From positions 1 to 34,472 of the IMG/VR virus record IMGVR_UViG_3300044820_000076: DNA of 34,472 bases. One strand, 5' to 3'. Position 1 is the stretch's first letter. The number at the start of each line of letters is the position of its first letter. The notes beneath the pieces are model-generated. The model did no database searches. It worked only from the letters and a program-made list of their open reading frames with translations, and was not told where the DNA came from. This document shows positions 8,813 to 34,472 of the stretch, piece by piece. The stretch is from a virus. Taxonomy: Duplodnaviria > Caudoviricetes. The position numbers and the translations under genes are program-made.

Positions 8813-8842
8813 CTCGCGGGAAAAACAAGCGCTATAGTGAAA
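8813..8842 (+). promoter_or_regulatory. Cassette motif copy 1 (CTCGC-N15-TATAGT-GAAA)
   Basis: CTCGC at 8813 and TATAGT at 8833; same 20-nt register as the other copies. Confidence 0.75.
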
Positions 8843-9340: not shown

Positions 9341-9370
9341 CTCGCGCGAAAAACATGTCCTATAATGAAA
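9341..9370 (+). promoter_or_regulatory. Cassette motif copy 2
   Basis: CTCGC at 9341, TATAATGAAA at 9361. Confidence 0.85.
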
Positions 9371-9608: not shown

Positions 9609-9636
9609 CTCGCACTTTTTACACGCCTTATAATGA
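9609..9636 (+). promoter_or_regulatory. Cassette motif copy 3
   Basis: CTCGC at 9609, TATAAT at 9629. Confidence 0.85.
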
Positions 9637-9728
9637 GAAGAAGTCCTATGGACAGTCATACGGAAGTTGGGCAGCGTCGGAAACTGCAGATTTATTGGCC
9701 CCACCAATATCTTCTCATTATTTTTTTT
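9630..9728 (+). ncRNA. Candidate structured small RNA A
   Basis: Closing stem ATAATGAGAAGA/TCTTCTCATTAT, three internal hairpins (GTCC-TAT-GGAC; GCAG..CTGC; TATTGG-CCCCA-CCAATA) and a U-tract; no RBS-led ORF. Confidence 0.65.
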
Positions 9729-9756
9729 CGCGGCCTAAACATGGGCTATAATGAAA
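9727..9756 (+). promoter_or_regulatory. Cassette motif copy 4
   Basis: TTCGC at 9727, TATAATGAAA at 9747. Confidence 0.8.
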
Positions 9757-10047: not shown

Positions 10048-10076
10048 CTCGTAAAAAAACACGTGCTATAATGAAA
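10048..10076 (+). promoter_or_regulatory. Cassette motif copy 5
   Basis: CTCGT at 10048, TGCTATAATGAAA with TATAAT at 10067 (spacer one nt shorter than the others). Confidence 0.85.
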
Positions 10077-10347: not shown

Positions 10348-10353
10348 ATTTAA

Positions 10354-10390: not shown

Positions 10391-10392
10391 AC

Positions 10393-10422
10393 CTCGCGTT
10401 AATTACATGTCCTATATTGAAA
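10393..10422 (+). promoter_or_regulatory. Cassette motif copy 6
   Basis: CTCGC at 10393, TATATTGAAA at 10413. Confidence 0.75.
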
Positions 10423-10496: not shown

Positions 10497-10501
10497 TATG
10501 C

Positions 10502-10531
10502 CTCGCACTTTTTACACGTGCTATAATGAAA
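10502..10531 (+). promoter_or_regulatory. Cassette motif copy 7
   Basis: CTCGC at 10502, TGCTATAATGAAA with TATAAT at 10522. Confidence 0.85.
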
Positions 10532-10560
10532 TTAAACTAAAAATTAAAGGGAGAGAAATC

Positions 10561-10704
10561 ATGTTAAAAAAATTAGGAAAGTTTTTAGATTCACACGAAA
10601 ACGTGATGGTCAATGTTGCATATGGATTTGCAGCTGTGATTATCGCGGGAACGTTGATCTTCAACGTCCTGGTAGCAACGCATGTAATTGAATTCGTTAA
10701 GTAA
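10561..10704 (+). CDS. Small membrane protein, 47 aa (MLKKLGKFLDSHENV...)
   Basis: AAGGGAG RBS before ATG10561; single TM helix. Confidence 0.75.
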   Translation: MLKKLGKFLDSHENVMVNVAYGFAAVIIAGTLIFNVLVATHVIEFVK

Positions 10705-10712
10705 ATTTAATC

Positions 10713-10749
10713 AAAAGAAAGGTATCAAGGAGACTTGGTATCTTCTTTT
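10713..10749 (+). terminator. Intrinsic terminator
   Basis: AAAAGAAAGGTATCAAG-GAGA-CTTGGTATCTTCTTTT. Confidence 0.85.
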
Positions 10750-10751
10750 AC

Positions 10752-10781
10752 CTCGCGTTTTTTACACGTGCTATAATGAAA
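10752..10781 (+). promoter_or_regulatory. Cassette motif copy 8
   Basis: CTCGC at 10752, TATAAT at 10772; 35 nt identical to copy 7 (10509-10543 = 10759-10793). Confidence 0.85.
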
Positions 10782-10825
10782 TTAAACTAAAAAATTAAAT
10801 TAACTATGAACTATAGGAGATTAAA

Positions 10826-10996
10826 ATGTTAGAAACAATTGCAATTATCTTAGTAGTATTGATAATCCTTGCTATTGGTGGCGTTCGCTTATTGAAAGCC
10901 ATCATATTAGGGATGTTAATCGGCTGGGCAATCGCCGTGGTTTGTAATATTGTAACCTACGTTGGAATCAAAATTAAGTTAGCTTTAGCTAAATGA
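10826..10996 (+). CDS. Small two-TM membrane protein, 56 aa (MLETIAIILVVLIILAIGG...)
   Basis: Manually translated; AGGAG RBS; almost entirely hydrophobic. Confidence 0.75.
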   Translation: MLETIAIILVVLIILAIGGVRLLKAIILGMLIGWAIAVVCNIVTYVGIKIKLALAK

Positions 10997-11000
10997 CCAA

Positions 11001-11040
11001 AAAAGAAAGGTCTCGTAAATAAAATACGGGATCTTCTTTT
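11001..11040 (+). terminator. Intrinsic terminator
   Basis: AAAAGAAAGGTCTCGTA-loop-TACGGGATCTTCTTTT; homologous to the 10354 terminator. Confidence 0.85.
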
Positions 11041-11064
11041 AACTTTTTCTTGAAAGGAGAAAGA

Positions 11065-11289
11065 ATGTACAGATCAGGTTATAACGAAGTTAAAGTCGGG
11101 GACCGCGTTGTTGTTAATGTGCACGGTGTTAATCGAGGAAAAAAAGGAACTGTTTCCAAATTGCGTGATGACCACGAAACGGCTGAATGCGGTGGACCAA
11201 TTTGGATTCGCTTTGATGATGGAACAGAGCACCGTATTTCTCATCGGTTCGTTTCGATCATAGAATATGTGGATGTTCATACATCTTGA
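11065..11289 (+). CDS. Small KOW/SH3-like beta-barrel protein
   Basis: 'VKVGDRVVV....NRGKKGTV' KOW-like motif and 'WIRFDDG'; TCTTGAAAGGAG RBS. Confidence 0.65.
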   Translation: MYRSGYNEVKVGDRVVVNVHGVNRGKKGTVSKLRDDHETAECGGPIWIRFDDGTEHRISHRFVSIIEYVDVHTS

Positions 11290-11300
11290 AAGGAGATAAT

Positions 11301-11645
11301 ATGGCGCAGGCACTTAACCGAGAACAGTATAACGCATATATGCAAGCCAGGAAGTTATTAGAATCGCTCGGGTATGTTCTTATAAATCGTGAATTATATT
11401 ACGAAATGCAAGAACAAATGTCCGTTATAATCGACCATATTTCCGACAAAACAAAAATTGTCCCAGTTCCATATGGCGATGATGCGGGTCTTATTCCACG
11501 GAAAGGCAACGAGTTGCCAAGTTCTAATAATTTCGTTCGTGTACCAATGTTTAGGTTATTTAATAGAGTAGTTGGTTACAATGTTGACGAGGATATTATT
11601 GTGTATTGGAAGGAGAAATACTATGACGGCATTCGATCCGAATGA
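11301..11645 (+). CDS. Hypothetical protein (paralogue of 12102..12374)
   Basis: TCTTGAAAGGAG RBS; shared motifs listed in the findings. Confidence 0.75.
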   Translation: MAQALNREQYNAYMQARKLLESLGYVLINRELYYEMQEQMSVIIDHISDKTKIVPVPYGDDAGLIPRKGNELPSSNNFVRVPMFRLFNRVVGYNVDEDIIVYWKEKYYDGIRSE

Positions 11646-11880
11646 ACTTCTGTCTAAGATTGTTAGCCAACTCTTGAATATCAAGATCATTGAGAGTGTA
11701 ACTATTGAAAAAGATGACCCAACACAATACAGGATAATCGTTCGATATTACAATTTCAAAAAGTATGTTTCGCTTATCATTCCTCTTATTGAGATAGAAA
11801 CAGCAAACTTTGACGTTGTTGAGTACACAGTTCAACAAATTCAACATTATATTGATGAAGAATCGAAAAAAAAAAGGTAA
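11623..11880 (+). CDS. Hypothetical protein
   Basis: AAGGAG RBS before ATG11623. Confidence 0.7.
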   Translation: MTAFDPNELLSKIVSQLLNIKIIESVTIEKDDPTQYRIIVRYYNFKKYVSLIIPLIEIETANFDVVEYTVQQIQHYIDEESKKKR

Positions 11881-11889
11881 GGAGTTAGT

Positions 11890-12105
11890 ATGTCTGATTT
11901 TTTGGATGTTTTTATGTATATGGGGGCCTTTTTTATTAATCTGACCGGAACCCTCGTGATCCTCATTTTAGTGCCTTTTGGTGTTATTGAGATCCTACTC
12001 TTCCGAAAACCTGGATATAAGATCGCTACTTTAAAGAACTTATTAGTGATCACAGGTCGCGAGATTAAGAAGTTATGGACTCAGAAATATGGGAGAATAA
12101 AATGA
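11890..12105 (+). CDS. Small membrane protein
   Basis: GGAG RBS; hydrophobic N-terminal half. Confidence 0.7.
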   Translation: MSDFLDVFMYMGAFFINLTGTLVILILVPFGVIEILLFRKPGYKIATLKNLLVITGREIKKLWTQKYGRIK

Positions 12106-12374
12106 GTGACGACTCAAATTTAGAACGATTGATCGATGGGGCGACCGTAGAATCCACTCAGAAATTGCTGCGCGACTTAGCCGCTCATTTTTCCGAGAAG
12201 ACTGAATTTGTTGCCATTCCTAATGGCGTATATTCGTGGGACACGCAAGTTTATGACGTTACACCAGACGGTATTAAAATGCACGTTGAGAGCACGCCAT
12301 TAGTGCCATTTTTTGGTATGATGGTTGGTTACAATTCCAAGCGTGATGTCATGGCCACATGGAAACCAAAATAA
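12102..12374 (+). CDS. Hypothetical protein (paralogue of 11301..11645)
   Basis: GGGAG RBS; ATGA overlap with the upstream gene. Confidence 0.75.
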   Translation: MSDDSNLERLIDGATVESTQKLLRDLAAHFSEKTEFVAIPNGVYSWDTQVYDVTPDGIKMHVESTPLVPFFGMMVGYNSKRDVMATWKPK

Positions 12375-12383
12375 GGAGTTACT

Positions 12384-12590
12384 ATGGGGCGAAAGAAAAA
12401 AAAACCGCCAATAATAGTAAGACTAATCACTCAGCAGACGATCGGTCTATCGCTAGATTTTGATATAATCTATTACGAGCAGAGATACGAGATGAGTGAC
12501 GGATCTGTAAAAAAAATGTACGCGTCACGCGTGCACGGCAAGATGTCAACTCCAAGTGAGACCAAACCTCACATGGATCTACCATTGTAA
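12384..12590 (+). CDS. Hypothetical basic protein
   Basis: AAGGAG RBS; compact gene packing. Confidence 0.65.
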   Translation: MGRKKKKPPIIVRLITQQTIGLSLDFDIIYYEQRYEMSDGSVKKMYASRVHGKMSTPSETKPHMDLPL

Positions 12591-12615
12591 TCATATTTTG
12601 AAAGGATATTGTAAG

Positions 12616-12792
12616 ATGGGTGGGATTAATTCAAGACATGTTAACTGGAAACCGGCGCCATTGCCTAGAAAAATGGCCCGCAAACCAAAATCTGGCTTAT
12701 ACTACGCTCTTAGTGTTCTGGGAGGGACCTGCATTGCTGGGATCATTATCTGGGGATTTTGGGGCGTTATTGTGCTGACGTTCTGGAGGTAA
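12616..12792 (+). CDS. Small membrane protein with a C-terminal TM helix
   Basis: GAAAGGA RBS before ATG12616. Confidence 0.65.
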   Translation: MGGINSRHVNWKPAPLPRKMARKPKSGLYYALSVLGGTCIAGIIIWGFWGVIVLTFWR

Positions 12793-12793
12793 G

Positions 12794-12970
12794 ATGACGA
12801 AAAATATGAAATGTTACTTCACCATAACTGGGCCTGTTCCGATGATTGCTGCCGGAGTGCTTCCTGTATTTGCCGATCATATTCCGTCATTTGCAAAAGA
12901 AATAGGTATCGCTTTCATTTTCCTTGGAGTAATATTTTTGATCTATATTTGGAGGATAAAGGAGAAATAA
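12794..12970 (+). CDS. Small membrane protein, 58 aa
   Basis: Manually translated; GGAGG RBS; TAATG coupling to the next gene. Confidence 0.6.
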   Translation: MTKNMKCYFTITGPVPMIAAGVLPVFADHIPSFAKEIGIAFIFLGVIFLIYIWRIKEK

Positions 12971-13224
12971 TGGCCGAACAAACTGAGGTTATAGTTAGAT
13001 ACCCAACTGGAATGACAGAAGAAGATAAAGACTCCCTTTACAAAGAAGTTATCGGCAATATTGAAAAATTGAAAGGCCGAATAGTGGAAGGAGAACCGAT
13101 TGAAGAAATTCATGTCGTCTTAGTCGGGACTCGACTTGTTGTTGAGGGCATCGAGCATTTTACAACTCAATTATCAACGGTTATAGACAGAAAAGAAGTC
13201 ACCTTCAAATCATTGGACGATTAA
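12970..13224 (+). CDS. Hypothetical acidic protein
   Basis: AAGGAG RBS before ATG12970; the track start at 12811 is unlikely. Confidence 0.7.
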   Translation: MAEQTEVIVRYPTGMTEEDKDSLYKEVIGNIEKLKGRIVEGEPIEEIHVVLVGTRLVVEGIEHFTTQLSTVIDRKEVTFKSLDD

Positions 13225-13251
13225 GAAAAAAACTCTTGAAAGGAGAATAAA

Positions 13252-13722
13252 ATGCAAAGGAAAGGTTTGAATAGCGCTGTTGCTCGTAATGTTTTGGCCA
13301 AGTCTCTGTACGATTGCATTGAGAAGGTTAACAAAGAGCGCTGGCTGACGAATACCACCGAGGGCCAACTCTACGCGGCCAAAATCAAGCAGGAAGCAGA
13401 GAACACCGAGCTGAAAAAGCAGTTTGCGGTTGGCCAGATGGTTTGGCGAGAGGACATTGCTTATCCTCAGGATCTCAACTCAGGAGTGGACGACGGCTGG
13501 CTTGTAAATCGCTGCAATCGAATTACCGAGGTGCATGACAGTTTTGTCCAAACTGAGATGCTTTTCGCTATTGACGCTGACGGCTTTACCAGACAGGATG
13601 AGTATTCTATTTGGTCTGGTTATATTTGCAAGAAGGGCGACGAGCAGATCTATATGTTTTACGAGTTGGAGAAGCATATCGCCAAGAGTGGTAATACCTG
13701 GTGGCGATTTAAAATCAAGTAG
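13252..13722 (+). CDS. Hypothetical protein
   Basis: TCTTGAAAGGAG RBS; 156 aa. Confidence 0.8.
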   Translation: MQRKGLNSAVARNVLAKSLYDCIEKVNKERWLTNTTEGQLYAAKIKQEAENTELKKQFAVGQMVWREDIAYPQDLNSGVDDGWLVNRCNRITEVHDSFVQTEMLFAIDADGFTRQDEYSIWSGYICKKGDEQIYMFYELEKHIAKSGNTWWRFKIK

Positions 13723-13752
13723 CTCGTAGAAAAAACACACGTTATAATGAAA
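13723..13752 (+). promoter_or_regulatory. Cassette motif copy 9
   Basis: CTCGT at 13723, TATAATGAAA at 13743. Confidence 0.85.
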
Positions 13753-13809
13753 GAGTTATATTGGCCAACTGCTAACTGCAGGTTATTGCTGATATAACTC
13801 TTATTTTTT
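13751..13809 (+). ncRNA. Candidate small RNA C or attenuator hairpin
   Basis: 15-bp stem AAGAGTTATATTGGC/GCTGATATAACTCTT (two G-U pairs) with an inner CTGC-TAACT-GCAG hairpin, then a U-tract. Confidence 0.55.
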
Positions 13810-13833
13810 CCCTAATCTTAAAAGGAGATTAAA

Positions 13834-13971
13834 ATGAAATGGACTAAAGGTCAAGGCTTAGTTGAGTACGCATTGGTTATCGTACTTGTTGCGATCGTTG
13901 TTATTGCTATTTTGGCCATATTAGGCCCGGCGATCAGCATGATTTTTGACAATATTCTTACCGCTCTCTAG
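13834..13971 (+). CDS. flp: Flp-family (Tad) pilin, 45 aa
   Basis: Manual translation MKWTKG/QGLVEYALVIVLVAIVVIAILAILGPAISMIFDNILTAL: prepilin G-cleavage site, E5-Y6 Flp motif and hydrophobic helix; AAAGGAG RBS. Confidence 0.9.
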   Translation: MKWTKGQGLVEYALVIVLVAIVVIAILAILGPAISMIFDNILTAL

Positions 13972-14011
13972 GCCGTAAGAACCATATTTTCGCATCTTGA
14001 AGGGAGATAAA

Positions 14012-14812
14012 ATGGATTTAAATTTGAAAGCACTGCAAGTCGTTGCCAAGAATGTTGGCGACGGAATGGTGAAAAACTCACCAAGTATTATGACTGGTCT
14101 AGGAGTTGGTGGGGTTCTGACAACTGCTATCTTAGCAGTAGGAGCCACGCCAAAAGCAATAGAACTGGTTGAAGAGGAAGACGCTCGGCGTGTTCAAGCC
14201 TGGGAAAAAGACAAAATCATTTATGAGCCACCGAGTAAACTTGACATGGTCAAACTAACCTGGAAGTTATATTTGCCATCTGCTTTGATGGGAGTTGCCA
14301 CGATCGCTTGCATTGTTGGCGCTAACTCCATTCATCTGCGTCGCTCAGCAGCCCTTGCTGGGGCATATTCCCTGGCTGACACTGCTTTGAAAGAATACCA
14401 AGCAAAAGTTCTGCAGCAACTCGGCGAAAAAAAAGAGCAATCTCTTATTCGTGACGAGATCGCCCAGGACAAATTGAACGCTAACCCAGTTGATGGCAAG
14501 CAGGTTATCGTGACTGGCAATGGTGACTGCATGTGTTACGAAGCACTATCAGGTCGCTATTTCAAGAGTAGTATGAACGCGATCAAGACCGCCGAGGCCA
14601 ACTTCAATCATGATTTGTTCACTGGGCGGATCGCTTATGGAACTCTTAACGAGTTTTATGACAATCTGGGCATCGAGCATTCGACCATGGGCGAGAATAC
14701 TGGTTGGTCGGTGAACCAACCTTTGAACGTCATTTACAGCTCAAAAATCGCCGTTCCGAGCAACGAGCCGTGTCTTGTACTGCAGTACTCCACCCCTCCG
14801 AGGCCTCTTTAA
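14012..14812 (+). CDS. DUF6353-like phage protein (paralogue 1)
   Basis: 'KNSPSIMTGLG..G....AV.ATPKA', 'LAGAYSL....LKEY', 'SGRYF' and 'LNEFYD.LG....G...GW' motifs. Confidence 0.75.
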   Translation: MDLNLKALQVVAKNVGDGMVKNSPSIMTGLGVGGVLTTAILAVGATPKAIELVEEEDARRVQAWEKDKIIYEPPSKLDMVKLTWKLYLPSALMGVATIACIVGANSIHLRRSAALAGAYSLADTALKEYQAKVLQQLGEKKEQSLIRDEIAQDKLNANPVDGKQVIVTGNGDCMCYEALSGRYFKSSMNAIKTAEANFNHDLFTGRIAYGTLNEFYDNLGIEHSTMGENTGWSVNQPLNVIYSSKIAVPSNEPCLVLQYSTPPRPL

Positions 14813-14846
14813 TACGGTTTTCACATATTTCAACGAAGACGAAGGA

Positions 14847-14942
14847 ATGTACTTCTTGATATGTGACGCCTGTGGTGAAGAGTGCCCTGCCGAAGAGTGG
14901 TTCAATTATGGGCATAGGTGCCCTAACATATTCTCCTCGTAG
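14847..14942 (+). CDS. Possible 31-aa zinc-finger mini-protein
   Basis: MYFLICDACGEECPAEEWFNYGHRCPNIFSS with CxxC...HxC; weak RBS. Confidence 0.35.
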   Translation: MYFLICDACGEECPAEEWFNYGHRCPNIFSS

Positions 14943-14965
14943 AATTTACACGTGCTATAATGAAA
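14936..14965 (+). promoter_or_regulatory. Cassette motif copy 10
   Basis: CTCGT at 14936, TGCTATAATGAAA with TATAAT at 14956. Confidence 0.85.
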
Positions 14966-14993
14966 TTAAATTCTAAAAAATAGGAGATTACCA

Positions 14994-15173
14994 ATGTTTG
15001 ATAAAATCAAAAGTATTGTAGCTGATCCCTTTGTACGCCAGACGGCTAAAGAAGTAGTAGGTGCGGTTGTTGTAACCAGCACTGTACTGATCACGACCGT
15101 CTTCGTCAAAGCGGTGATGGGCACAGTAGTTGATGCTATCAACGGCGAGAAGAAACCCGTTGAGCAGAATTGA
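14994..15173 (+). CDS. Small membrane protein, 59 aa (MFDKIKSIVADPF...)
   Basis: Manually translated; AGGAG RBS; Val/Thr-rich hydrophobic segment. Confidence 0.75.
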   Translation: MFDKIKSIVADPFVRQTAKEVVGAVVVTSTVLITTVFVKAVMGTVVDAINGEKKPVEQN

Positions 15174-15181
15174 TTTAGACT

Positions 15182-15219
15182 GATTAGATGTTAAGGAAAC
15201 TTAGCATCTAGTCTTTCTT
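15182..15219 (+). terminator. Intrinsic terminator
   Basis: GATTAGATGTTAAG-GAAA-CTTAGCATCTAGTC-TTTCTT. Confidence 0.8.
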
Positions 15220-15249
15220 CTCGCATAAAAAACACGGGCTATAATGAAA
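15220..15249 (+). promoter_or_regulatory. Cassette motif copy 11
   Basis: CTCGC at 15220, TATAATGAAA at 15240; GGGCTATAATGAAACTATATT is identical to copy 4. Confidence 0.85.
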
Positions 15250-15281
15250 CTATATTCTATTTATCTTGAAGGAGATTAAAA

Positions 15282-15476
15282 ATGATCGAACAGATTAAAG
15301 CGTTTGCAGTGTCCCATAAAGACGAAATCGTAAAGAAAGCTATCATCCTTGGTGGCGCGGTCGTTGGCTTAATTGTCACGAGCGTTGCCGTCAAATTGAC
15401 CAGCCCCTCTACCGAGATCGTTTCCGACGTGGAACCCGAATCGCAAGAACCGGTCGACCCTGAAATCCAGGCGTAG
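15282..15476 (+). CDS. Small membrane protein, 64 aa, with an acidic tail
   Basis: TCTTGAAGGAG RBS; one TM helix. Confidence 0.8.
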   Translation: MIEQIKAFAVSHKDEIVKKAIILGGAVVGLIVTSVAVKLTSPSTEIVSDVEPESQEPVDPEIQA

Positions 15477-15488
15477 ACAGAATTAGTG

Positions 15489-15527
15489 AAAGGAAGGGTG
15501 TTAAGGAAACTTAGCACCTTTCTTTTT
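15489..15527 (+). terminator. Intrinsic terminator
   Basis: AAGGAAGGGTGTTAAG-GAAA-CTTAGCACCTTTCTTTT; core identical to the 15182 terminator. Confidence 0.85.
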
Positions 15528-15544
15528 CTTTTTGAAGGGAAGAA

Positions 15545-15754
15545 ATGGCTAAGGTAATTGTCAATAAATGCGCATATTGTGGCTCCCCAATTAGCGAGCA
15601 CGAGGCTAGCAATGATATTTTCAACGACACAAAAAATCGCTTGGCCGTTCAAGCTCGGACATTCCCAAATCGCGAACCAACAGGGTTTGTTGCGGACGAC
15701 ACTATTATTCTTTACGAGCAGGTTTGCAAGACTTGCAAAAAACATGTTAGCTAA
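15545..15754 (+). CDS. Small zinc-ribbon protein
   Basis: CAYC and CKTC pairs; GAAGGGA RBS. Confidence 0.7.
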   Translation: MAKVIVNKCAYCGSPISEHEASNDIFNDTKNRLAVQARTFPNREPTGFVADDTIILYEQVCKTCKKHVS

Positions 15755-15779
15755 CATCATCTTGAAGGGATGAACACTT

Positions 15780-16034
15780 ATGTCTGATAAAGTTAAAAAA
15801 TCAATTTACCATATTCATGTCGTTACTGACAGCTCGAAAATATCCGTTCCACAAGTTATTGTGTTTGACTCGGTAAATGCTATTTGTGAGTTAGATAAGA
15901 TGGTAAATTTTGTCCGAGATATTATAGGTAATGACGTTGTTTTCTGTGACGGCCAGGTAGCACGATTCTGGGACAACAGTAAAGTTTATTGGTATAGGTG
16001 CTGTGATGGGGGGTGCCTAAATCATGACCACTAG
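15780..16034 (+). CDS. Hypothetical protein
   Basis: TCTTGAAGGGA RBS. Confidence 0.65.
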   Translation: MSDKVKKSIYHIHVVTDSSKISVPQVIVFDSVNAICELDKMVNFVRDIIGNDVVFCDGQVARFWDNSKVYWYRCCDGGCLNHDH

Positions 16035-16161
16035 AGAGCAGGAAAAACGTAGGCAGGAAGAAGAGCGACGTCGTCAGAAAGCAGACCGCTGGATTAAAAA
16101 AGAGCAAACAACTCTGCTTGTTCATATTCGTGAGAACGAGCAGAAAAAAAATAATAAATAG
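16024..16161 (+). CDS. Small charged helical protein, 45 aa
   Basis: Manually translated (MTTREQEKRRQEEERRRQK...); fills the gap between neighbours. Confidence 0.5.
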   Translation: MTTREQEKRRQEEERRRQKADRWIKKEQTTLLVHIRENEQKKNNK

Positions 16162-16170
16162 GAGGATATC

Positions 16171-16500
16171 ATGTACGAGCGCTTTATTGACATGCTAACA
16201 AATTATGGCGATTTAGCTGCATATTTGCTAGTTAAATGCGAGACCAAAACTTTAACTGAGGAAGACGTGCAATGGGCGAAAAATGACGAGATGTCTTCCA
16301 GCACGTTGATATCAATGCTCGGTGGTGCTCCCGAAGAGAACCCCGACGTTGAGTTTTTGGCGCGTGAGGGTGTTAACGCGATCGCTTTTGACTTGCACCT
16401 GAACACACAAAACTATTTGCGAGAGCTTGGTCTTATTCCTCCGACGAGTGTCTGGGGCGAAGATGAGATGGAGTGCAAAGCTGATGATAGCGAAGACTAG
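16171..16500 (+). CDS. Hypothetical acidic protein
   Basis: AGGAGG RBS. Confidence 0.75.
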   Translation: MYERFIDMLTNYGDLAAYLLVKCETKTLTEEDVQWAKNDEMSSSTLISMLGGAPEENPDVEFLAREGVNAIAFDLHLNTQNYLRELGLIPPTSVWGEDEMECKADDSED

Positions 16501-16930
16501 TAATCCGTCTATAACCATATTTCGAAGTTTAATGTTCTTAATCGCGGCAACCCTGGTCTTTCTCGCGTTCAAAGCGATCGAACCATTTTTGGTGTTAGAA
16601 GCCGTCGACACGGAAGTTTTAGAAGCTGAGCCGGTGATGGTTATCGCTCCTAACAAAGTTTCCGATCATGGACTAACCAAGCACGCTGAGGCCAGTGCTA
16701 TACAGGACTCCTGCAATAAATCTATTTATCAGGTATGGAGAGATAAGTATGAGAGAAAATATTACTACTTATGCAAATTACAGAATGATAAATGGGGGAT
16801 TATTCCTGTTATTATTTCTAGCACCTCTGAAATTTGGAAAACTGCTTTTAGCCCTGGCAATGGGTGCTGGGCTGATACCTTTCGATATTTATCTAATACT
16901 GCCACTAAGTTCACAGGAGTTGTCCGTTAA
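16484..16930 (+). CDS. Membrane-anchored/secreted protein
   Basis: GGAG before ATG16484; N-terminal TM followed by a Cys-containing domain. Confidence 0.7.
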   Translation: MIAKTSNPSITIFRSLMFLIAATLVFLAFKAIEPFLVLEAVDTEVLEAEPVMVIAPNKVSDHGLTKHAEASAIQDSCNKSIYQVWRDKYERKYYYLCKLQNDKWGIIPVIISSTSEIWKTAFSPGNGCWADTFRYLSNTATKFTGVVR

Positions 16931-16944
16931 ATCTTGGAGAAGAA

Positions 16945-17061
16945 ATGGGCGACAAATTCTTAGGATCATCAATCGGAATGTTAGTGAAAAGTATAATCTT
17001 TGGTATTATACTACTTGGACTTCTTTTAGGTTTGATTTACGTGTTAGGATCTATGAGTTGA
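16945..17061 (+). CDS. Membrane mini-protein, 38 aa
   Basis: Manually translated MGDKFLGSSIGMLVKSIIFGIILLGLLLGLIYVLGSMS; GGAG RBS. Confidence 0.55.
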   Translation: MGDKFLGSSIGMLVKSIIFGIILLGLLLGLIYVLGSMS

Positions 17062-17159
17062 AAGAAGTTCTTAAAGAAGTTCGTCCAACGATAGGTGTGG
17101 TTTTCGCTATTATAACGATTACCACACTTATCATATTTATGATGTATATCTTCTCGTAG
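17058..17159 (+). CDS. Possible membrane mini-protein, 33 aa
   Basis: TTGA overlap with the previous stop; hydrophobic C-terminus (3' end of track ORF 16695..17159). Confidence 0.4.
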   Translation: MKEVLKEVRPTIGVVFAIITITTLIIFMMYIFS

Positions 17160-17182
17160 AAAAAACATCTCCTATAATGAAA
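17153..17182 (+). promoter_or_regulatory. Cassette motif copy 12
   Basis: CTCGT at 17153, TATAATGAAA at 17173. Confidence 0.85.
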
Positions 17183-17204
17183 TCATATTCAAAAGGAGAA
17201 ACTA

Positions 17205-17477
17205 ATGGATAAAGTTAAAATTGCTAAAGTTGTTGGCAAAGGTCTTATCTCATTTTTAACGAGCGCTTCTGTAGGAGCTGTTGTTGAGAACGCTATTGAG
17301 TTCACTACCCCTGCTGGATTAAAGCCTTATAAAAAGGTTTTGGTCGCAGTTGGAAAGGTGATCATCAGTGGTATTGTCGCGACAGCCGCTACGAAGTACG
17401 TTGAGAAAGAGATGGAGACTTTTGGCAAAATCGAAGTGGTTATTACCAAATCACAGGAAGAAGAACCAAGTATATGA
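17205..17477 (+). CDS. Small membrane-associated protein, 90 aa
   Basis: AAAGGAG RBS; two hydrophobic helices. Confidence 0.8.
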   Translation: MDKVKIAKVVGKGLISFLTSASVGAVVENAIEFTTPAGLKPYKKVLVAVGKVIISGIVATAATKYVEKEMETFGKIEVVITKSQEEEPSI

Positions 17478-17483
17478 TCCCTT

Positions 17484-17519
17484 AAAAGTTGGATACTATA
17501 AACATAGTATCTAGCTTTT
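17484..17519 (+). terminator. Intrinsic terminator
   Basis: AAAAGTTGGATACTAT-AAAC-ATAGTATCTAGCTTTT. Confidence 0.85.
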
Positions 17520-17549: not shown

Positions 17550-17930
17550 ATGGCGACTATTCTATTTTTTAATAACGAGAGATACATCAGACTCGAACAC
17601 CGAACTTTTAACATCACGAATGAATATACCAAAGTATTTAACGGCAATTCGCATCACTATTTTAAAAATGCTGGCTTGGATCTGTATTTCTTGAAACGTA
17701 CCGAAAAGTATGCCAACGATATTCTCGATGTTCAGGGGCATCTCTTTCTGAACGAGGTTTTTGACATGCTAGGATTGCCAAGAACTACCATCGGAGCTAT
17801 CGTTGGTTGGAATAAAGGCCCGGTAAACTTTGGATTACCAGAGAAGATAACAAAAAAACTTATCGAAAAGCCAGAGTTCGTCCTCAATTTCAATGTTGAT
17901 GGCGTGATTTTTGACACGATCGAATCTTGA
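17550..17930 (+). CDS. DUF6353-like C-terminal-domain-only protein
   Basis: 'YANDILDVQGHLFLNEVFDMLGLPRT..GAIVGW...FNVDGVI' closely matches the C-terminus of 19374..20273. Confidence 0.8.
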   Translation: MATILFFNNERYIRLEHRTFNITNEYTKVFNGNSHHYFKNAGLDLYFLKRTEKYANDILDVQGHLFLNEVFDMLGLPRTTIGAIVGWNKGPVNFGLPEKITKKLIEKPEFVLNFNVDGVIFDTIES

Positions 17931-19194: not shown

Positions 19195-19377
19195 ATGAGT
19201 GAAGAAGATGATAGCAAAATTGACAAAGCTATAAGGACCATTAATTTGGCCTATTTTTTAAACAATCTTTTCTTAGCAAGGAGTATGCAGAAGCATCTTG
19301 AGACTCTGCAGGATAAACAGGTGTTGAGAGACAAAGAGCGCCGGGCTGAGAACGAATCAAAAAGGAGAACGAAATGA
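19195..19377 (+). CDS. Hypothetical protein
   Basis: GAGGT RBS; ATGA overlap with the next gene. Confidence 0.65.
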   Translation: MSEEDDSKIDKAIRTINLAYFLNNLFLARSMQKHLETLQDKQVLRDKERRAENESKRRTK

Positions 19378-20273
19378 TCAACTTGGGAAATTGGAAAAGC
19401 AGTTTGTATCGTGGCGCCTTAGTCGCGCAGAAATATAGCCCAGAACTTCTGATGGGACTGGGCATCGGTGGTATCATTGGCAGTACGATCTTGGCCTGCA
19501 GAGCGACACTGAAAGTGGAAGCGATCATGACCAAATCGAACGAAAACATTGCCAAAATTAACGAGGTCGTTGACAGCGGAAATCCGCTCTACACAGAGCA
19601 GGACGCGCAAAAGGACATAATGATCAATGCTGTCCAGACAGGGGCCTCCTTGGTCAGTTTATACGCTCCTGCTGCCATTCTAGGAGTTATTTCAATCTCC
19701 TGTATTCTTACTTCGCACTCGATCGTGACGAAGCGGAATTTGGCACTGATGGCGGCCTACAAAGTGGTCGACGAATCGTTCAAGCAGTATCGCGATCGCG
19801 TTGCTGCCGAGATTGGTCCTGAGAAGGAAGACCTTATTCGCCACAATACCAAGCAGACCGTGACGACCGAGACCGTCGTGAATGAGGATGGAAAAAAGGT
19901 CAAGCAGCAGAAGGTTGAGAACGTTCTTGACCTGACGAATCTAAGTCCTTATGCCAGAGTATTTGATGAGTTCTCAAAAGAATATCAGAAAAATGCTGAC
20001 ATGAACATGTTCTTCCTGATCACCAAGCAGAACTGGGCGAACGATATGCTGCACGTGCATGGCCATCTCTTCCTGAACGAGGTGTACGACATGCTCGGAA
20101 TGCCACGCAGCCAGGAAGGTGCTATCATGGGTTGGGTCCTCGGGGCCAACGGCAAAGATCAGAAAATTGACTTTGGTATTTATGCTCCAGGAAATGCCCA
20201 ATTCGTTGCTGGCTACGAGCGGGCCTGTTGGCTGGATTTCAATGTGGATGGGATCATCTGGAATTTGATCTGA
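19374..20273 (+). CDS. DUF6353-like phage protein (paralogue 2)
   Basis: 'KYSPELL.G.GI.G......AC.AT', 'ALMAAY......FKQYR.RV', 'GHLFLNEVYDMLG' and 'LDFNVDG' motifs. Confidence 0.8.
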   Translation: MINLGNWKSSLYRGALVAQKYSPELLMGLGIGGIIGSTILACRATLKVEAIMTKSNENIAKINEVVDSGNPLYTEQDAQKDIMINAVQTGASLVSLYAPAAILGVISISCILTSHSIVTKRNLALMAAYKVVDESFKQYRDRVAAEIGPEKEDLIRHNTKQTVTTETVVNEDGKKVKQQKVENVLDLTNLSPYARVFDEFSKEYQKNADMNMFFLITKQNWANDMLHVHGHLFLNEVYDMLGMPRSQEGAIMGWVLGANGKDQKIDFGIYAPGNAQFVAGYERACWLDFNVDGIIWNLI

Positions 20274-24318: not shown

Positions 24319-24345
24319 CTCGTAGAAAAAACGTGGCATAGATAG
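24319..24345 (+). promoter_or_regulatory. Degenerate cassette motif copy
   Basis: CTCGTAGAAAAAAC matches copies 9 and 12; the TATAAT box is degenerate (CATAGAT). Confidence 0.45.
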
Positions 24346-24473
24346 GGATGGTAGAATACTAAGGAAATTGAATAAGAGCATATATCGATAGCCCTTTTCC
24401 TTGACTTCATAACTCGGATCGACGAGAGTTTCGCTTAATATGAGGCGTCTACTATCCCTTTTTATGCTACGTT
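24330..24473 (+). ncRNA. Candidate structured RNA D (about 144 nt)
   Basis: 26-position closing stem 24330-24355/24448-24473 (three G-U pairs, one mismatch); inner stems AAGGAAA/TTTCCTT, CTTCATA/TATGAGG and AACTC/GAGTT. Confidence 0.7.
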
Positions 24474-24490
24474 GATGATTTTTGATGAAA

Positions 24491-24706
24491 AAATGTTACA
24501 AATGTTACAAAATGTTGCGTTTTTAAAACAGAAACGCAACACCTAAAAAGGTGGTTTTTGGGTCGATTTCACGCCTACAGACCATCTTTTTTTGCCTGAT
24601 TTTGGCAAAATGTTGCGTTGTTACACTTTTTCTTACCACCTTTATAGAGAAAAATATAGATATATAAAGAGTTTATAGATATTAAATGTAACAACGCAAC
24701 GCAACA
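24491..24706. repeat. Putative replication origin with direct and inverted repeats around an AT-rich core
   Basis: AAATGTTAC x2, then AATGTTGCGTT; IR TGTTGCGTTT/AAACGCAACA (24513-24541); perfect 14-bp IR GTTGCGTTGTTACA (24612-24625)/TGTAACAACGCAAC (24687-24700) flanking TATAGA-rich DNA; directly before the replicase gene. Confidence 0.7.
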
Positions 24707-24735
24707 AAATTGTTGAAAGGAGAAACAAAACACTA

Positions 24736-30433: not shown

Positions 30434-30499
30434 CTCGCGTTCCAAACATGTGCTATAATAGAAGGAGAATGAGTAATATCATTCTCTTTCTTTATTTTT
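30434..30499 (+). promoter_or_regulatory. Cassette motif copy 13 followed by a terminator/attenuator hairpin
   Basis: CTCGC at 30434, TGCTATAAT with TATAAT at 30454; hairpin AGAAGGAGAATGA-GTAATA-TCATTCTCTTTCT plus TTATTTTT. Confidence 0.75.
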
Positions 30500-30511
30500 C
30501 AGGAGAAAAGT

Positions 30512-30835
30512 ATGTCAATTCTAGAATCGCGGTTTCAAGCAAAAGTGATTCGTGAACTTCACGAAACATTTCCTGGTATTATTGTTTTAAAAAACGATCC
30601 AAATTATCTTCAAGGTTTTCCAGATTTGACTTTACTGTATCATAATTACTGGTCAGTTTTGGAAACAAAAAGACTTGAAGATTCTGATCGTCAGAATAAC
30701 CAGGAATACTACGTTAAAGAACTTAGTAAATGGAGTTATACGAATTTTATATATCCTGAAAATAAGGAAACAGTACTCGATGAACTTCAATACGCATTCC
30801 GACTTAAAAGATCAACACGCATTCTTAGGCGCTAG
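30512..30835 (+). CDS. VRR-NUC-family nuclease (Holliday junction resolvase-like)
   Basis: 'LESRFQ', 'GFPDL', 'LETK' and 'NQEYY' PD-(D/E)XK pattern. Confidence 0.8.
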   Translation: MSILESRFQAKVIRELHETFPGIIVLKNDPNYLQGFPDLTLLYHNYWSVLETKRLEDSDRQNNQEYYVKELSKWSYTNFIYPENKETVLDELQYAFRLKRSTRILRR

Positions 30836-31340
30836 TAAATATCATTGGCTTAACTACAGCGAAGAGAAACTTGGTTACTCATATTTGAATTTTCTAGCGG
30901 TTCAAAGAGGAACTGAACTTCATGAGTTTGCCTATCAATGCATTCGTCTTGGTCAAAGATTACCAAAAAGTAAAAAATCTCTAAATATGTATGTTAACGA
31001 TGCTATAGGTTACCGAATGATACCAGAACAAACCTTGTATTATTCTGATAATAGTTTTGGAACGGCAGATGCCATTTCGTTTAGAGACAAACTTCTTCGG
31101 ATTCATGATTTAAAAACTGGAGTTTCTCCAGTATCGATGAACCAACTGTATATCTATACAGCATTATTTTGTTTAGAGTATTCGGTTGAGCCAAGAGACA
31201 TATCTGTTGAATTGCGGATATATCAGCTAGATGAAATTGTTGTTGATAACCCAATCGATACTTTAATTCATGAAGTGATGAATAAAATAATCATGTTTGA
31301 TAAGAAGATTGAACAACTAAAACTGGAGGAGAACTTATGA
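30780..31340 (+). CDS. PD-(D/E)XK exonuclease-like protein
   Basis: 'HAFLGAS', 'RGTELH', 'EQ.L', 'FGTADAI', 'IHDLKTG' and 'QL.IY'; AAGGA RBS before ATG30780. Confidence 0.8.
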   Translation: MNFNTHSDLKDQHAFLGASKYHWLNYSEEKLGYSYLNFLAVQRGTELHEFAYQCIRLGQRLPKSKKSLNMYVNDAIGYRMIPEQTLYYSDNSFGTADAISFRDKLLRIHDLKTGVSPVSMNQLYIYTALFCLEYSVEPRDISVELRIYQLDEIVVDNPIDTLIHEVMNKIIMFDKKIEQLKLEENL

Positions 31341-34138
31341 CCACGGATGACGAACTGAAACATATTGGAGTTAAAAGACGTTCCGGCCGTTATCCTTGGG
31401 GTTCTGGAAATGACCCAGAACAAAGAGGCACAAGTTTTCTTGGAACCGTTGAGCAACTTCACAAGCAAGGTCTTTCCGAAGTTGAAATTGCCAGAGGTTT
31501 AGGGATTAAAACATCAGGTTTAAGATCCCAGAAAACGATTGATCTTGCTGCCAAGAAAGCAGCAGATGCGGCATTTGCCTATCGTTTAAGAGAAAAAGGA
31601 ATGTCAAAATCGGCAATCTCTAAACGAATGGGCATTAACGATCATACGGTTGCATCTCTTCTCAATCCATCAACACAAGCCCGAAATGCATCTTTAAAAA
31701 ATATATCAGATGTATTAAAGACATGCGCTGATGAAAGTCCATATGGAATTGATGTTGGCGCTCATGTTGAAAATCATCTCGGCGTTACTAATACCAAACT
31801 AAAAGTAGCCATCAAGATGCTTGAAGATCAAGGATATAAGATTCAATATCATGATGTCATTCAGAGTGGCACCGGTAAAAAGACTTCTCTTAAATATTTG
31901 GTAAAACCTGGAACAGATTGGAAAGATGTTGAAGCAAATAAAGAAAAAGTTCAACTTCCAGGTGCCCATTCTCAAGATTATGGCGTAACTTTGACTCCGC
32001 TTGAACCAGTTCGCCATATTGATAGTAAAAGGATTGAAGTTCGTTATGCTGAGGATGGTGGCAGTTTAAAAGATGGTGTTATTGAACTTCGTAAGGGTGT
32101 TCCAGAGTTAGCTCTATCAACTCATTATGCCCAAGTACGTATTGGTGTTGACGGGACCCATTTCATGAAAGGAATGGCCATATATACCGATAACATACCA
32201 GAAGGAAAAGATATCATCTACAACACTAATAAACCAAAAGGGTCTTCGAAAGATTTAATTTTCAAGCCTGTTAAAAAAGATAAACTGACGAAAGTAGTTG
32301 ATGAGACCAATCCTTTTAATGCCTCAATCACGCAAAGGCACTATATTGATGCTGATGGAAAAGAGCAATTGTCAGCTTTAAATTTGGTAGGCCAAGGAAC
32401 ACACATCAACGAAGAAGGTGCTTGGAGCAACTGGTCAAAAAGTTTATCGTCGCAAATCCTTTCAAAACAACTTCCAGAAGTAGCAAAAAAACAATTGGGT
32501 GAGGCATTAACAGAGAAACAGAAAAGTTTTGAAGAATTGCAATCTCTGACTAACCCAGTTGTAAAAAGAGTTCTACTTCAAAAATTTGCATCTGAATGTG
32601 ATTCTGGGGCTGTTGATTTAAAAGCTGCTGCTTTGCCACGACAGTCGTCGCATGTTTTGTTGCCTGTTGTTAGCCTGAAGGAAAATGAAGTATTTGCTCC
32701 TAATTTTGAAAATGGAGAATCTGTTGTTCTGATTAGGCATCCTCATGGAGGTCCTTTTGAGATACCAGAACTTATTGTAAACAATAAGAATCAAGAGGCT
32801 TTAAGTGTTTATGGAAAAGATGCAAAAGATATGGTTGGGATAAACCCAAAAGTTGCTGGAAAATTATCAGGAGCAGATTTTGATGGGGATGCGGTAATTG
32901 TTATTCCAAACGCTAATAAAAACATAAGGACGGAATCTTCTTTAAGAGGATTGAAAGGTTTTTCAACAACCGAGGCTTATCCTGAGTATCCAGGAATGCC
33001 AAAAATGAGTCCGAAAACAAAGCAGACCGAAATGGGTAATATTAGCAATCTTATTACTGATATGACGATTAAGGGAGCAAGTGATGACGAATTGGCAGCA
33101 GCAGTTCGTCATTCTATGGTTGTAATCGATGCCGAAAAGCATAATTTAAATTATAAGCAATCGGCATTGGATAACAATATTTCGTCATTAAAACTTAAGT
33201 ATCAGGGAAAGACAACTGGTGGAGCAGCAACCCTTATTTCAAGAGCTGGCTCTGATTTCAGAGTTCCTTTACGCAAAGATCAAGTTTTAACTGATCCTAC
33301 AACAGGAAAGAAGGTTTATCAATATATAACTGGCGAAACTTATATTAACGCCAAAGGGCATAAGGTTAAAGTAACAACGCCAGATATAAATATAGCGAAA
33401 GCCTCTCCAGGAGAAATATATGTCACTCAAAAATATAAAAAAGACCCCGTTACAGGGAAAAAAATATATTTAGAGGGACAATATAAGAGCATTAAACGGG
33501 AAACCAAAACAACGAAGATGGCACAAACTGAAGATGCCCGTACTTTGATTGGTTCCACAAACACAAGAATGGAAGTCATCTATGCTGATCACGCCAATGC
33601 TCTTAAAGATCTTGGAAATAAGGCTAGATTGTTATATCTTAATACCCCTGGTCTTTCTTACTCCCCCTCTGCTGCAAAGACTTATAGCAATGAAGTTAAA
33701 TCCCTAGATTCTAAGCTTAACGAAGCCTTCAAAAATGCCCCCCTAGAGCGTCACGCTCAGACTATCTCTGATAAGAAGATCAAGACAAAGATGCAGTCTA
33801 ATCCTGATATGGAACCTGATCAGATTAAGAAGTTAAGAGGACGCAGTCTTATAGAAGCACGTACTCTTGCAGGAGCAGGCAAGAAACCTGTTGAAATTAC
33901 TGACAGAGAATGGGAAGCCATACAAGCAGGTGCTATCTCTAACAATAAGTTAGTACAGATACTAAACAATACTAATGTTGATGCCCTAAAGCAGCGTGCG
34001 TTGCCTCATAGTACAGTAACTATTAGTGATGCCAGTGCATCTAGAGCAAGACAGATGCATGATTCAGGGCAATCAAGAGCAGAGATAGCATCAACCTTAG
34101 GCGTATCATTAAGTACAGTAGATAAGATTCTAGCATAA
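31337..34138 (+). CDS. Single-chain two-barrel RNA polymerase (YonO / cellular-RdRP-like) with N- and C-terminal HTH domains
   Basis: Catalytic GADFDGD (32876-32890), upstream 'LIRHP', 'QVRI....FMKGM' and 'VIDAEK'; HTHs 'SEVEIARGLGI', 'SKSAISKRMGI' and 'SRAEIASTLGVSLSTV'. Confidence 0.8.
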   Translation: MTTDDELKHIGVKRRSGRYPWGSGNDPEQRGTSFLGTVEQLHKQGLSEVEIARGLGIKTSGLRSQKTIDLAAKKAADAAFAYRLREKGMSKSAISKRMGINDHTVASLLNPSTQARNASLKNISDVLKTCADESPYGIDVGAHVENHLGVTNTKLKVAIKMLEDQGYKIQYHDVIQSGTGKKTSLKYLVKPGTDWKDVEANKEKVQLPGAHSQDYGVTLTPLEPVRHIDSKRIEVRYAEDGGSLKDGVIELRKGVPELALSTHYAQVRIGVDGTHFMKGMAIYTDNIPEGKDIIYNTNKPKGSSKDLIFKPVKKDKLTKVVDETNPFNASITQRHYIDADGKEQLSALNLVGQGTHINEEGAWSNWSKSLSSQILSKQLPEVAKKQLGEALTEKQKSFEELQSLTNPVVKRVLLQKFASECDSGAVDLKAAALPRQSSHVLLPVVSLKENEVFAPNFENGESVVLIRHPHGGPFEIPELIVNNKNQEALSVYGKDAKDMVGINPKVAGKLSGADFDGDAVIVIPNANKNIRTESSLRGLKGFSTTEAYPEYPGMPKMSPKTKQTEMGNISNLITDMTIKGASDDELAAAVRHSMVVIDAEKHNLNYKQSALDNNISSLKLKYQGKTTGGAATLISRAGSDFRVPLRKDQVLTDPTTGKKVYQYITGETYINAKGHKVKVTTPDINIAKASPGEIYVTQKYKKDPVTGKKIYLEGQYKSIKRETKTTKMAQTEDARTLIGSTNTRMEVIYADHANALKDLGNKARLLYLNTPGLSYSPSAAKTYSNEVKSLDSKLNEAFKNAPLERHAQTISDKKIKTKMQSNPDMEPDQIKKLRGRSLIEARTLAGAGKKPVEITDREWEAIQAGAISNNKLVQILNNTNVDALKQRALPHSTVTISDASASRARQMHDSGQSRAEIASTLGVSLSTVDKILA

Positions 34139-34148: not shown

Positions 34149-34415
34149 ATGGCAGACGAACCAGTAATGTTAACAACAACAGACAATCCATACAATCCTT
34201 TTGTGCAATGGGATCTATGGCGTTCGTATGATGAAGGTCAAGGTTACTACACCTGCCCCTACCTGGCTAGGGTAGCCAAGACAAGTGATGACTTGAGTGA
34301 AACTGATCAAGAACAGGCCATCCTAGAAGCAATTGACAGCATCATCGCAACAAACATATTAGGAACTTACATAAAAGTAACTCCTTCTTACTTTAAAACG
34401 AATAAATCGACTTAA
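34149..34415 (+). CDS. Conserved-looking small acidic protein
   Basis: 'MLTT.DNPYNPF.QWD.W..YD...GY.T..YLAR'; AAGGAG RBS. Confidence 0.8.
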   Translation: MADEPVMLTTTDNPYNPFVQWDLWRSYDEGQGYYTCPYLARVAKTSDDLSETDQEQAILEAIDSIIATNILGTYIKVTPSYFKTNKST

Positions 34416-34438
34416 AAATGCATTAAAAGTGATAGGCG

Positions 34439-34464
34439 GGGGGGTCTCGTAAAACATACCCCCC
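34439..34464. repeat. G6/C6 inverted repeat at the window end
   Basis: GGGGGGT-CTCGTAAAACAT-ACCCCCC. Confidence 0.5.
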
Positions 34465-34472
34465 TTGCTTAT

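Follow-up and report, generated by a model that had tools for sequence, protein, structure and literature searches.

The window analysed here covers positions 1 to 34,472 of IMG/VR record IMGVR_UViG_3300044820_000076 (Caudoviricetes), a 34.5-kb piece of a siphophage genome in which every recognised gene lies on the + strand, in the order tail genes, a run of small genes, primase-polymerase, annealing protein, helicase, VRR-Nuc, exonuclease, RNA polymerase (RNAP), a small gene and the genome end. We focused on the RNAP gene, a member of the 1706 gp75/PHROG 4291 family, and on a promoter-like motif that recurs in the window and across the family (Table 1). As judged from sequence comparison and a structural model, the protein is likely a sigma-independent, DNA-dependent RNAP that would bind the TCGY element of this motif through its second helix-turn-helix domain (HTH2) and, probably carried in the phage head, would serve the non-structural genes.

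Table 1. Features of the window discussed in the text (res, residues of the 933-amino-acid polymerase).
Feature	Position	Strand	Basis
Motif copy	8813..8840	+	matrix scan
Motif copy	9341..9368	+	matrix scan
Motif copy, then non-coding multi-stem cassette 9635-9720	9609..9636	+	matrix scan; fold z -1.6, weak
Motif copy	9727..9754	+	matrix scan
Motif copy, spacer 1 bp shorter	10048..10074	+	matrix scan
Motif copy, then non-coding hairpin cassette 10419-10495	10393..10420	+	matrix scan; fold z -3.4
Motif copy	10502..10529	+	matrix scan
Motif copy	10752..10779	+	matrix scan
Motif copy, then non-coding hairpin cassette 13749-13808	13723..13750	+	matrix scan; fold z -6.4
Motif copy	14936..14963	+	matrix scan
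Motif copy	15220..15247	+	matrix scan
Motif copy	17153..17180	+	matrix scan
Degenerate motif copy (score 20.9) upstream of primase-polymerase gene	24319..24346	+	matrix scan
Motif copy upstream of VRR-Nuc, Cas4-like exonuclease and RNAP operon	30434..30461	+	matrix scan
Hairpin and T-run directly behind hexamer; predicted 5' leader or attenuator	30460..30500	+	fold z -5.4; common at this site in relatives
VRR-Nuc-like gene	30512-30835	+	predicted same operon as RNAP
Cas4-like exonuclease gene	30780-31340	+	predicted same operon as RNAP
Single-chain two-barrel RNAP gene, 1706 gp75/PHROG 4291 family	31337..34138	+	open reading frame, homology, AlphaFold/Foldseek/VIA
Disordered leader, res 1-29, with L-x-H-x-G tag; putative head-loading signal	31337..31423	+	alignment, model
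HTH1, res 34-70	31436..31546	+	AlphaFold helices; R63 in 126/128 rows
HTH2, res 74-112; residue 103 codon 31643-31645 (His here)	31556..31672	+	model, covariation with base -28
Extended winged helix, res about 118-205	31688..31951	+	Z 8.0; Z 8.9, 87 aligned, rmsd 3.2
First barrel region, res about 225-360, with D246, R268, K278	32009..32416	+	VIA and family alignment
Catalytic double-psi barrel, res 432-532, with R467-x-P469 and D514-F-D-G-D518 (32876-32890)	32630..32932	+	double-psi beta-barrel matches, alignment
C-terminal HTH, res 897-933, weak sigma4-like match	34025..34135	+	profile match
Conserved small gene after RNAP (PHROG 4303), last before genome end	34149..34415	+	homology

An earlier reading of this DNA from its letters alone (the sequence-only reading) had proposed a single-chain polymerase on the strength of four short motifs, and all of them were found in the open reading frame (ORF): QVRI at residues 266-269, KGM at 278-280, RHP at 467-469 and GADFDGD at 512-518. 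Matches to the double-psi beta-barrel cover residues 432-532 (VIA) and include the DxDGD loop and upstream R-x-P of the two-barrel superfamily; a second barrel with an aspartate and two basic residues is also present, in which D246, R268 and K278 would be the counterparts, paired by their order, of D709, R738 and K743 of QDE-1. The eight candidate catalytic residues (D246, R268, K278, R467, P469, D514, D516 and D518) were invariant in 128/128 family rows and appear to correspond, again by order, to the eight residues that the covered text of PMC2919709 lists for all two-barrel enzymes. The sequence-only reading had called for an AlphaFold and Foldseek check. A model built from 91 sequences (predicted local distance difference test, pLDDT, 83.5; predicted template modelling score 0.76) had QDE-1 as its top match (E 1.7e-9), followed by plant RDR2 and the P74-26/P23-45 non-virion RNAP, and all matches listed at E <= 0.001 were to QDE-1, RDR2 or the Thermus phage non-virion RNAP. 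VIA yielded Z scores of 13.6 for QDE-1 (376 aligned residues, root-mean-square deviation (rmsd) 4.7; model residues 225-767 on chain residues 681-1186), 13.2 for RDR2 and 12.0 for the Thermus phage enzyme, over model residues about 225-770. A sequence search of the PDB with the polymerase returned nothing significant. The identification of the ORF as a single-chain two-barrel polymerase is thus confirmed, and the modelled fold together with the aligned catalytic residues makes DNA-dependent RNAP activity very probable.

The protein matched PHROG 4291 over its full length (E 0, residues 2-932), and tblastn at E 1e-5 recovered 250 phage records, 249 of them covering at least 80%. Their hosts were mainly Arthrobacter (95), Gordonia (55), Streptomyces (54) and Lactococcus (13), with others in smaller numbers and no Bacillus. 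In the protein collection 7995/8000 scored candidates matched, and among the matches listed no relative was as much as 60% identical to the window protein. Full-length homology, HTHs at both ends and the location of its gene after VRR-Nuc and exonuclease, close to the right end of the genome, all place it in the 1706 gp75 family, whose members are also annotated as 'putative RNA polymerase' (FP_oengus) or 'HTH DNA-binding domain protein' (actinophages) within the same PHROG and share the context VRR-Nuc, exonuclease, RNAP, small gene and genome end.

On either side of the core lie four DNA-binding modules. The sequence-only reading had recognised two N-terminal HTHs and one sigma4-like HTH at the extreme C terminus; all three could be located, although a third N-terminal module, the winged helix, and the leader had been missed, and the sigma4 likeness turned out to be marginal (Sigma70_r4_2 against the whole protein, 26.9 bits at a cut-off of 25.7), with generic HTH models scoring higher (HTH_7, E 1.2e-8). 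HTH2 gave a DeoR HTH match over residues 68-116 (VIA, Z 7.2). The boundaries of the winged helix are approximate, its start being placed at about 111 or about 118 and its end at 205. Foldseek with a single-sequence model of the N-terminal piece (pLDDT 67) found no match at E <= 0.001, and no sigma factor was among the top VIA rows listed for this low-confidence model. In the leader, H9 and G11 were invariant in 91 sequences. The predicted recognition helix of HTH2 has the family consensus E-S-S/T-V-R, with R106 kept in 118/128 rows; the window protein has diverged here and reads DHTVA (D102-H103-A106) instead of ESSVR.

The CTCGY motif noticed by the sequence-only reading proved to be real. 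The window contains 12 strong copies of the type CTCGY-N7-ACA-N5-TAT(A/G/T)-GA, together with one whose spacer is 1 bp shorter and one that is degenerate, and every copy lies on the + strand. The strong copies scored 29-38 against a maximum of 12.1 over 20 shuffles, with a matrix trained on the window's own sites. They lie downstream of terminator-like hairpins or gene ends and upstream of small genes or short non-coding hairpins, with one in front of the operon that encodes VRR-Nuc, exonuclease and the polymerase; they are predicted to act as promoters. Three copies precede gene-free, foldable stretches of 60-85 nt. Of the small-RNA cassettes that had been proposed, the stable hairpins were borne out, while Rfam and ARAGORN gave 0 matches on the window and so no RNA family or tRNA could be assigned.

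Some further features of these cassettes were observed. Related terminator-like hairpins (9173-9208, 10018-10045, 10360-10385, 10719-10744, 11007-11035, 15182-15213 and 15488-15527) end cassettes, often immediately 5' of the next motif, giving the appearance of modular promoter-gene-terminator units. In two relatives, G008 (at 39278) and CHPC971 (at 30681), tRNA-like sequences lie behind motif copies, and in G008 the closing stem begins at the first base behind the hexamer; the multi-stem fold of the window cassette at 9635-9720 resembles them, without an ARAGORN call. A 45-residue ORF at 13834-13971, right behind a motif copy and hairpin cassette, is Flp/Fap pilin-like (PF04964, E 1.2e-4, below the cut-off) and is possibly host-derived. 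Flp/Fap-type pilins are typical of Chloroflexota.

Across the family the motif takes the form TCGY-N7-ACA-N5-TATAAT-GA. An exact pattern was matched in 12/15 IMG/VR records, with 0 for the reversed control, and its spacer was rigid (61/62 matches at 8 bp with 7-9 allowed). When the matrix was refined for each genome, 235 strong sites were found in 26/28 genomes examined, with GC contents of 0.32-0.61 and actinobacterial, Lactococcus and Faecalibacterium hosts; no strong site came from G002 (one sub-threshold site) or from G024, a fragment without the cassette region. It should be noted that G002, a 61 kb IMG/VR record, has a full-length family RNAP and that its single site was weak under the family matrix; it may use a diverged promoter. 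Matches were strongly biased in strand (196 sense and 3 antisense at 160 loci). They were also biased in position: no strong site lay between terminase and tape measure in 23/23 genomes, and a relaxed scan gave 2 weak matches in 178 kb of left (structural) arms versus 97 in 349 kb of right arms.

The downstream hexamer resembles a sigma70 -10 element, TAnnnT being present in 12/12 strong window sites. In other respects the sites depart from host promoters: 0/12 window sites passed a -35/-10 scan with a -35 box at 16-18 bp, and the TG extension was found in 4/12. In sigma70 numbering, the best-kept bases of the family were C-19 (1.00), T-10 (0.98), T-7 (0.96), and C-30 and A-18 (0.94 each), with A-11 at 0.84. 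A-11 was not kept across the family as a host sigma70 promoter would keep it; it was absent at all sites of Oengus (0/14), G013 (0/11) and G023 (0/10), the losses fall, in at least two lineages, on separate branches of a tree that left out G002, G024 and G009 (RNAP incomplete in the sequence used), and Clostridia prophages mostly have TTTTAT or TGTTAT before the RNAP operon. Since sigma70 relies on A-11 and accepts spacers of variable length, the loss of A-11 together with the rigid spacer fits a phage-encoded reader better than sigma70. Among the prophage loci from GTDB, the temperate Clostridia members L183-L247 have the hexamer most remote from TATAAT, and some of them carry additional motif copies downstream of RNAP; such a hexamer may keep the promoters silent to the host polymerase in lysogens.

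The sequence-only reading had further proposed that the HTHs read the CTCGY element, and had suggested looking for covariation between HTH residues and the motif. This analysis pointed to residue 103, in the predicted recognition helix of HTH2, and base -28. In a first set of 113 paired rows, all four rows with Gly103 had T instead of C at -28. The prediction of a Gly103/T-28 pairing was recorded before viral contigs were scanned for the TCGT and TCGC versions of the motif; the two scans gave 185 loci. In 60 of these the flank lacked any family marker, and in 44 it included the RNAP start, which made them usable. At residue 103, Gly or His was found in 11/16 TCGT loci (one being the earlier G008) versus 0/28 TCGC loci; L077 has Gly and L004 His. 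After removal of 24 rows more than 95% identical to others (152 to 128), T-28 accompanied Gly103 in 12/12 rows, His in 3/4, Ser in 5/104 and other residues in 1/8, Ser being paired with C in 99/104. Column 103 ranked first among 3612 tests (Fisher 1e-11, uncorrected for kinship), and the neighbouring columns 108, 101 and 98 came soon after it; column 103 was the only one of the top 60 columns supported by independent pairs.

For the phylogenetic comparison, trees were built without the HTH2 columns, and locus L269 was scored C after a recount in the IQ-TREE and core-only analyses. The tree implied 7 changes to or from Gly103. All independent pairs pointed in the same direction and none in the opposite one (p 0.016 with 7 pairs, FastTree; 0.031 with 6-7 pairs, quick IQ-TREE). 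Whole-contig recounts with position -28 left free gave T at 16/17, 4/4, 4/4, 4/5 and 2/3 sites in the Gly103 genomes G032, G033, G040, G029 and G034, and at 2/3 in the His-type G030; the Ser-type G035, an apparent exception, had C at 5/6, while two Ser-type fragments retained their one T site. Low GC content does not account for the pattern, as 37/38 Ser103 rows under 40% GC keep C. Ten other motif positions showed strong raw associations that were clade effects, none being supported by independent pairs. For the C-terminal HTH no column was supported at those ten positions or at -28, with few independent changes and low power, so that of the proposed HTH contacts a partner base could be assigned to HTH2 only. 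It is highly likely, on this covariation, that HTH2 binds the motif and contacts base -28, and the fact that residue and base change in step suggests that the enzyme probably finds its promoters unaided by host sigma.

The bases behind the hexamer gave a hint about the start site. At 103 sites before the RNAP operon, a hairpin starts immediately after the hexamer, with a pairing probability of 0.60-0.84 at -6 to -1 versus 0.23-0.45 in the hexamer. The -6 to -2 bases paired better with their own 3' arm (-14.55 versus -13.78 +/- 0.10 kcal/mol for swapped blocks), although -6 to -4 showed little of this effect and the hexamer none, the comparison was not corrected for kinship and purine runs pair readily with T tails. 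The result hints that these bases are transcribed and that initiation occurs ahead of the sigma70 position. A metatranscriptome contained 6% of the words, and its six short contigs on 8800-17500 were uninformative on strand, start or level and were not used as evidence.

As to where the enzyme acts from, the L-x-H-x-G tag of its leader also stands at the start of head-module proteins in 15/15 relatives examined, and the ReqiPepy6 record annotates the RNAP orthologue as similar to 1706 gp75 and as a structural protein. These observations suggest that the polymerase is probably packaged in the phage head. Injection of the enzyme would account for the first expression of a gene that is itself placed under the enzyme's promoter.

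Taken together, the data suggest the following mechanism. Loading into the head would depend on the L-x-H-x-G leader, and the enzyme, once injected, would transcribe the non-structural arm first. HTH2 would contact the TCGY element at base -28. As the 10-bp phasing puts the ACA box one turn further downstream, HTH1 or the winged helix might, at a guess, read that box. The DNA would melt at the AT-rich hexamer, and transcription is predicted to start immediately after it, short of where sigma70 would begin. Initiation by the phage enzyme without a sigma factor is, we infer from these sequence patterns, probable. The structural genes lack the motif; their transcription would require either a different promoter or polymerases reading through where the genome ends are joined. 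As the motif marks the non-structural arm and the polymerase operon and not the structural arm, the evidence for the 'self-contained' transcription system of the sequence-only reading does not reach the late genes.

Several points weigh against this interpretation. A perfect TATAAT is kept in most lytic lineages, the window included, which suggests selection for host sigma too. The covariation is based on 4-7 supported independent pairs, with many rows contributing a single site; p was 0.06-0.125 on the tree of core columns (4-6 pairs) and 0.125 for the new rows alone, and at best such covariation shows binding, not which enzyme initiates. HTH2 has diverged in the window, yet TCG is present in 12/12 sites and C-28 in 9/12; CHPC971 keeps the ESSVR helix while its sites read CAC. 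No motif lies upstream of structural genes. Finally, the case for a virion enzyme rests on a database annotation and a shared tag.

The main rival, kept alive by the perfect TATAAT of the lytic lineages, is that the HTHs, bound at the TCGY and ACA boxes, bring the host sigma70 holoenzyme to the hexamer while the phage core serves late genes, or that both enzymes use the site in lytic lineages. We consider it unlikely. Appropriation of the host holoenzyme has a precedent in T4 middle promoters, and binding alone would explain the covariation equally well. YonO transcribes late genes, according to the covered part of PMC5467207, and two genome announcements, as far as their text was covered, read the motif as a sigma70 -10. 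Recruitment is harder to reconcile with the rigid spacing, or with the fact that at least two lineages, phages of Clostridia among them, have lost A-11 and kept T-10 and C-19 fixed; the self-pairing of -6 to -2, although not corrected for kinship, hints that those bases are transcribed. Nor was a separate late motif found: the left arms contained no full motif and inspection of the genome ends by eye revealed none, no de novo motif search having been made there.

It is improbable that a different phage protein reads the motif and that the polymerase HTHs bind something else. The mismatches between HTH2 and motif in the window and in CHPC971 would fit such a reader, and many conserved genes of no assigned function exist outside the covariation analysis; against this, residue 103 and base -28 change repeatedly and in the same direction, and residue 103 is in the predicted recognition helix. 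We give slightly less credence still to the motif being an ordinary promoter for host sigma70, or a sequence marking recombination boundaries, unrelated to the polymerase, which is how similar repeats have been read in print. In the text covered, the intergenic repeat of the Gordonia phages Vardy and Conley (cluster DJ) is interpreted as a sigma70 -10 (PMC9671010, PMC10868162) and that of cluster AU (Giantsbane) as a recombination boundary (bioRxiv 2020.01.10.891226). We found our motif in the DJ phage Gill and the AU phage Gordon. The published repeats, which we liken to it from their description in the text, occupy the same genome region, and the DJ motif contains TATAAT; unlike in our interpretation, they are not linked there to a phage polymerase. 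Such readings agree poorly with the missing -35, the rare TG extension, the loss of A-11, the strand bias, the conservation across host phyla and the covariation with HTH2; recombination between motif copies may be a side effect. The least probable alternative, an RNA-dependent polymerase or a primase-like enzyme (the PHROG/RefSeq name) acting perhaps on the hairpin RNAs, draws on the nearest solved folds being QDE-1 and RDR2, on the PHROG label and on a weak match to PF05183 (eukaryotic RNA-dependent RNA polymerase; E 0.042, 13 bits, below the Pfam gathering score of 23.8), and is countered by the presence of four DNA-binding modules, of which one covaries with a motif in DNA, and by the DNA dependence of the tested single-chain phage relatives, YonO and P23-45 gp64.

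Comparison with known systems helps to define what is new. The sequence-only reading had likened the protein to YonO, and as a single-chain two-barrel enzyme it does belong with that class, although its family is 1706/PHROG 4291, not YonO proper, and had already been described by computation. SP-beta YonO is likewise a phage RNAP of about 100 kDa in one chain with the same catalytic signature; unlike the window system, where a multi-copy motif marks the non-structural arm, it transcribes late genes as one operon (PMC5467207, part of the text). As for homology to YonO beyond the catalytic motifs, no Bacillus phage was among the 250 tblastn matches at E 1e-5, no direct pairwise comparison having been made. 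The single-chain RNAPs of Thermus phages (P23-45 gp64/P74-26 gp62, and gp96, fused to the tape measure protein) matched structurally with Z 12.0 and 9.9. In the available text of bioRxiv 2022.12.01.518664, each is tied to its own promoter motif, assigned by chromatin immunoprecipitation sequencing and 5'-end mapping, and gp96 is virion-borne. They match the core only (model 225-772), leaving the HTH modules outside, and packaging there is through the tape measure fusion. QDE-1 and RDR2 differ in being eukaryotic silencing enzymes, with 11-15% identity, and also match the core and not the HTH modules.

PMC2919709, in the covered text, names a 1706 family among YonO-like proteins, and bioRxiv 10.1101/842583 describes RdRP-like homology, DxDGD and HTHs at both termini, the word 'promoter' being absent from the part covered; neither, within that text, gives a promoter link or a specificity residue. 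No relevant passage was found in the covered portions of PMC7302621, PMC5513430, PMC13313380 and PMC13432834. The literature search found no paper testing the enzyme or tying it to the motif; the primary papers on 1706 and ReqiPepy6 lay outside its coverage and may hold promoter repeats or a virion location. The protein is thus a member of a family already predicted in print and is not itself new. What is new is the link between protein and promoter and the residue-base code, neither of which was found in the literature searched.

A few other features of the window should be mentioned. At the genome end (34433-34465), a G-run/C-run inverted repeat has in its loop a TCTCGT half-site resembling the upstream box of the motif; the half-site is TCTCGC in Mudcat, Gordon, Rima, Scap1, Camille and Pepy6, and the CHPC971 end reads TCAC, as in its own promoters. 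The polymerase may bind this site at the end of the DNA. The window also has three DUF6353 paralogues (13997-14812, 17550-17930 and 19374-20273); one is truncated, and two share a 69-nt repeat of 80% identity. Upstream of the primase-polymerase gene, the AT-rich, non-coding stretch 24450-24730 with short direct repeats is a candidate replication origin.

We would give about even chances to the broader picture in which a widespread phage lineage injects a 100-kDa one-chain two-barrel RNAP whose fused HTH array replaces sigma, which reads a three-box promoter by a Ser103-C/Gly103-T code, and which starts behind a TATAAT look-alike that has drifted in temperate members. If that is true, the enzyme would rank as the smallest promoter-specific RNAP of the cellular type whose specificity is mapped and switchable. 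How the sigma-less, single-chain YonO recognises promoters was left open in the covered text of PMC5467207, and the present family makes sigma-free promoter recognition testable, with a defined promoter, phages cultured on laboratory hosts and a predicted one-residue/one-base switch. If our interpretation is right, a core gene found in about 250 sequenced phage records and in thousands of relatives from the environment would be reannotated, the motif now taken for a host promoter would be reinterpreted, and the family would offer a compact orthogonal transcription system working in several phyla.

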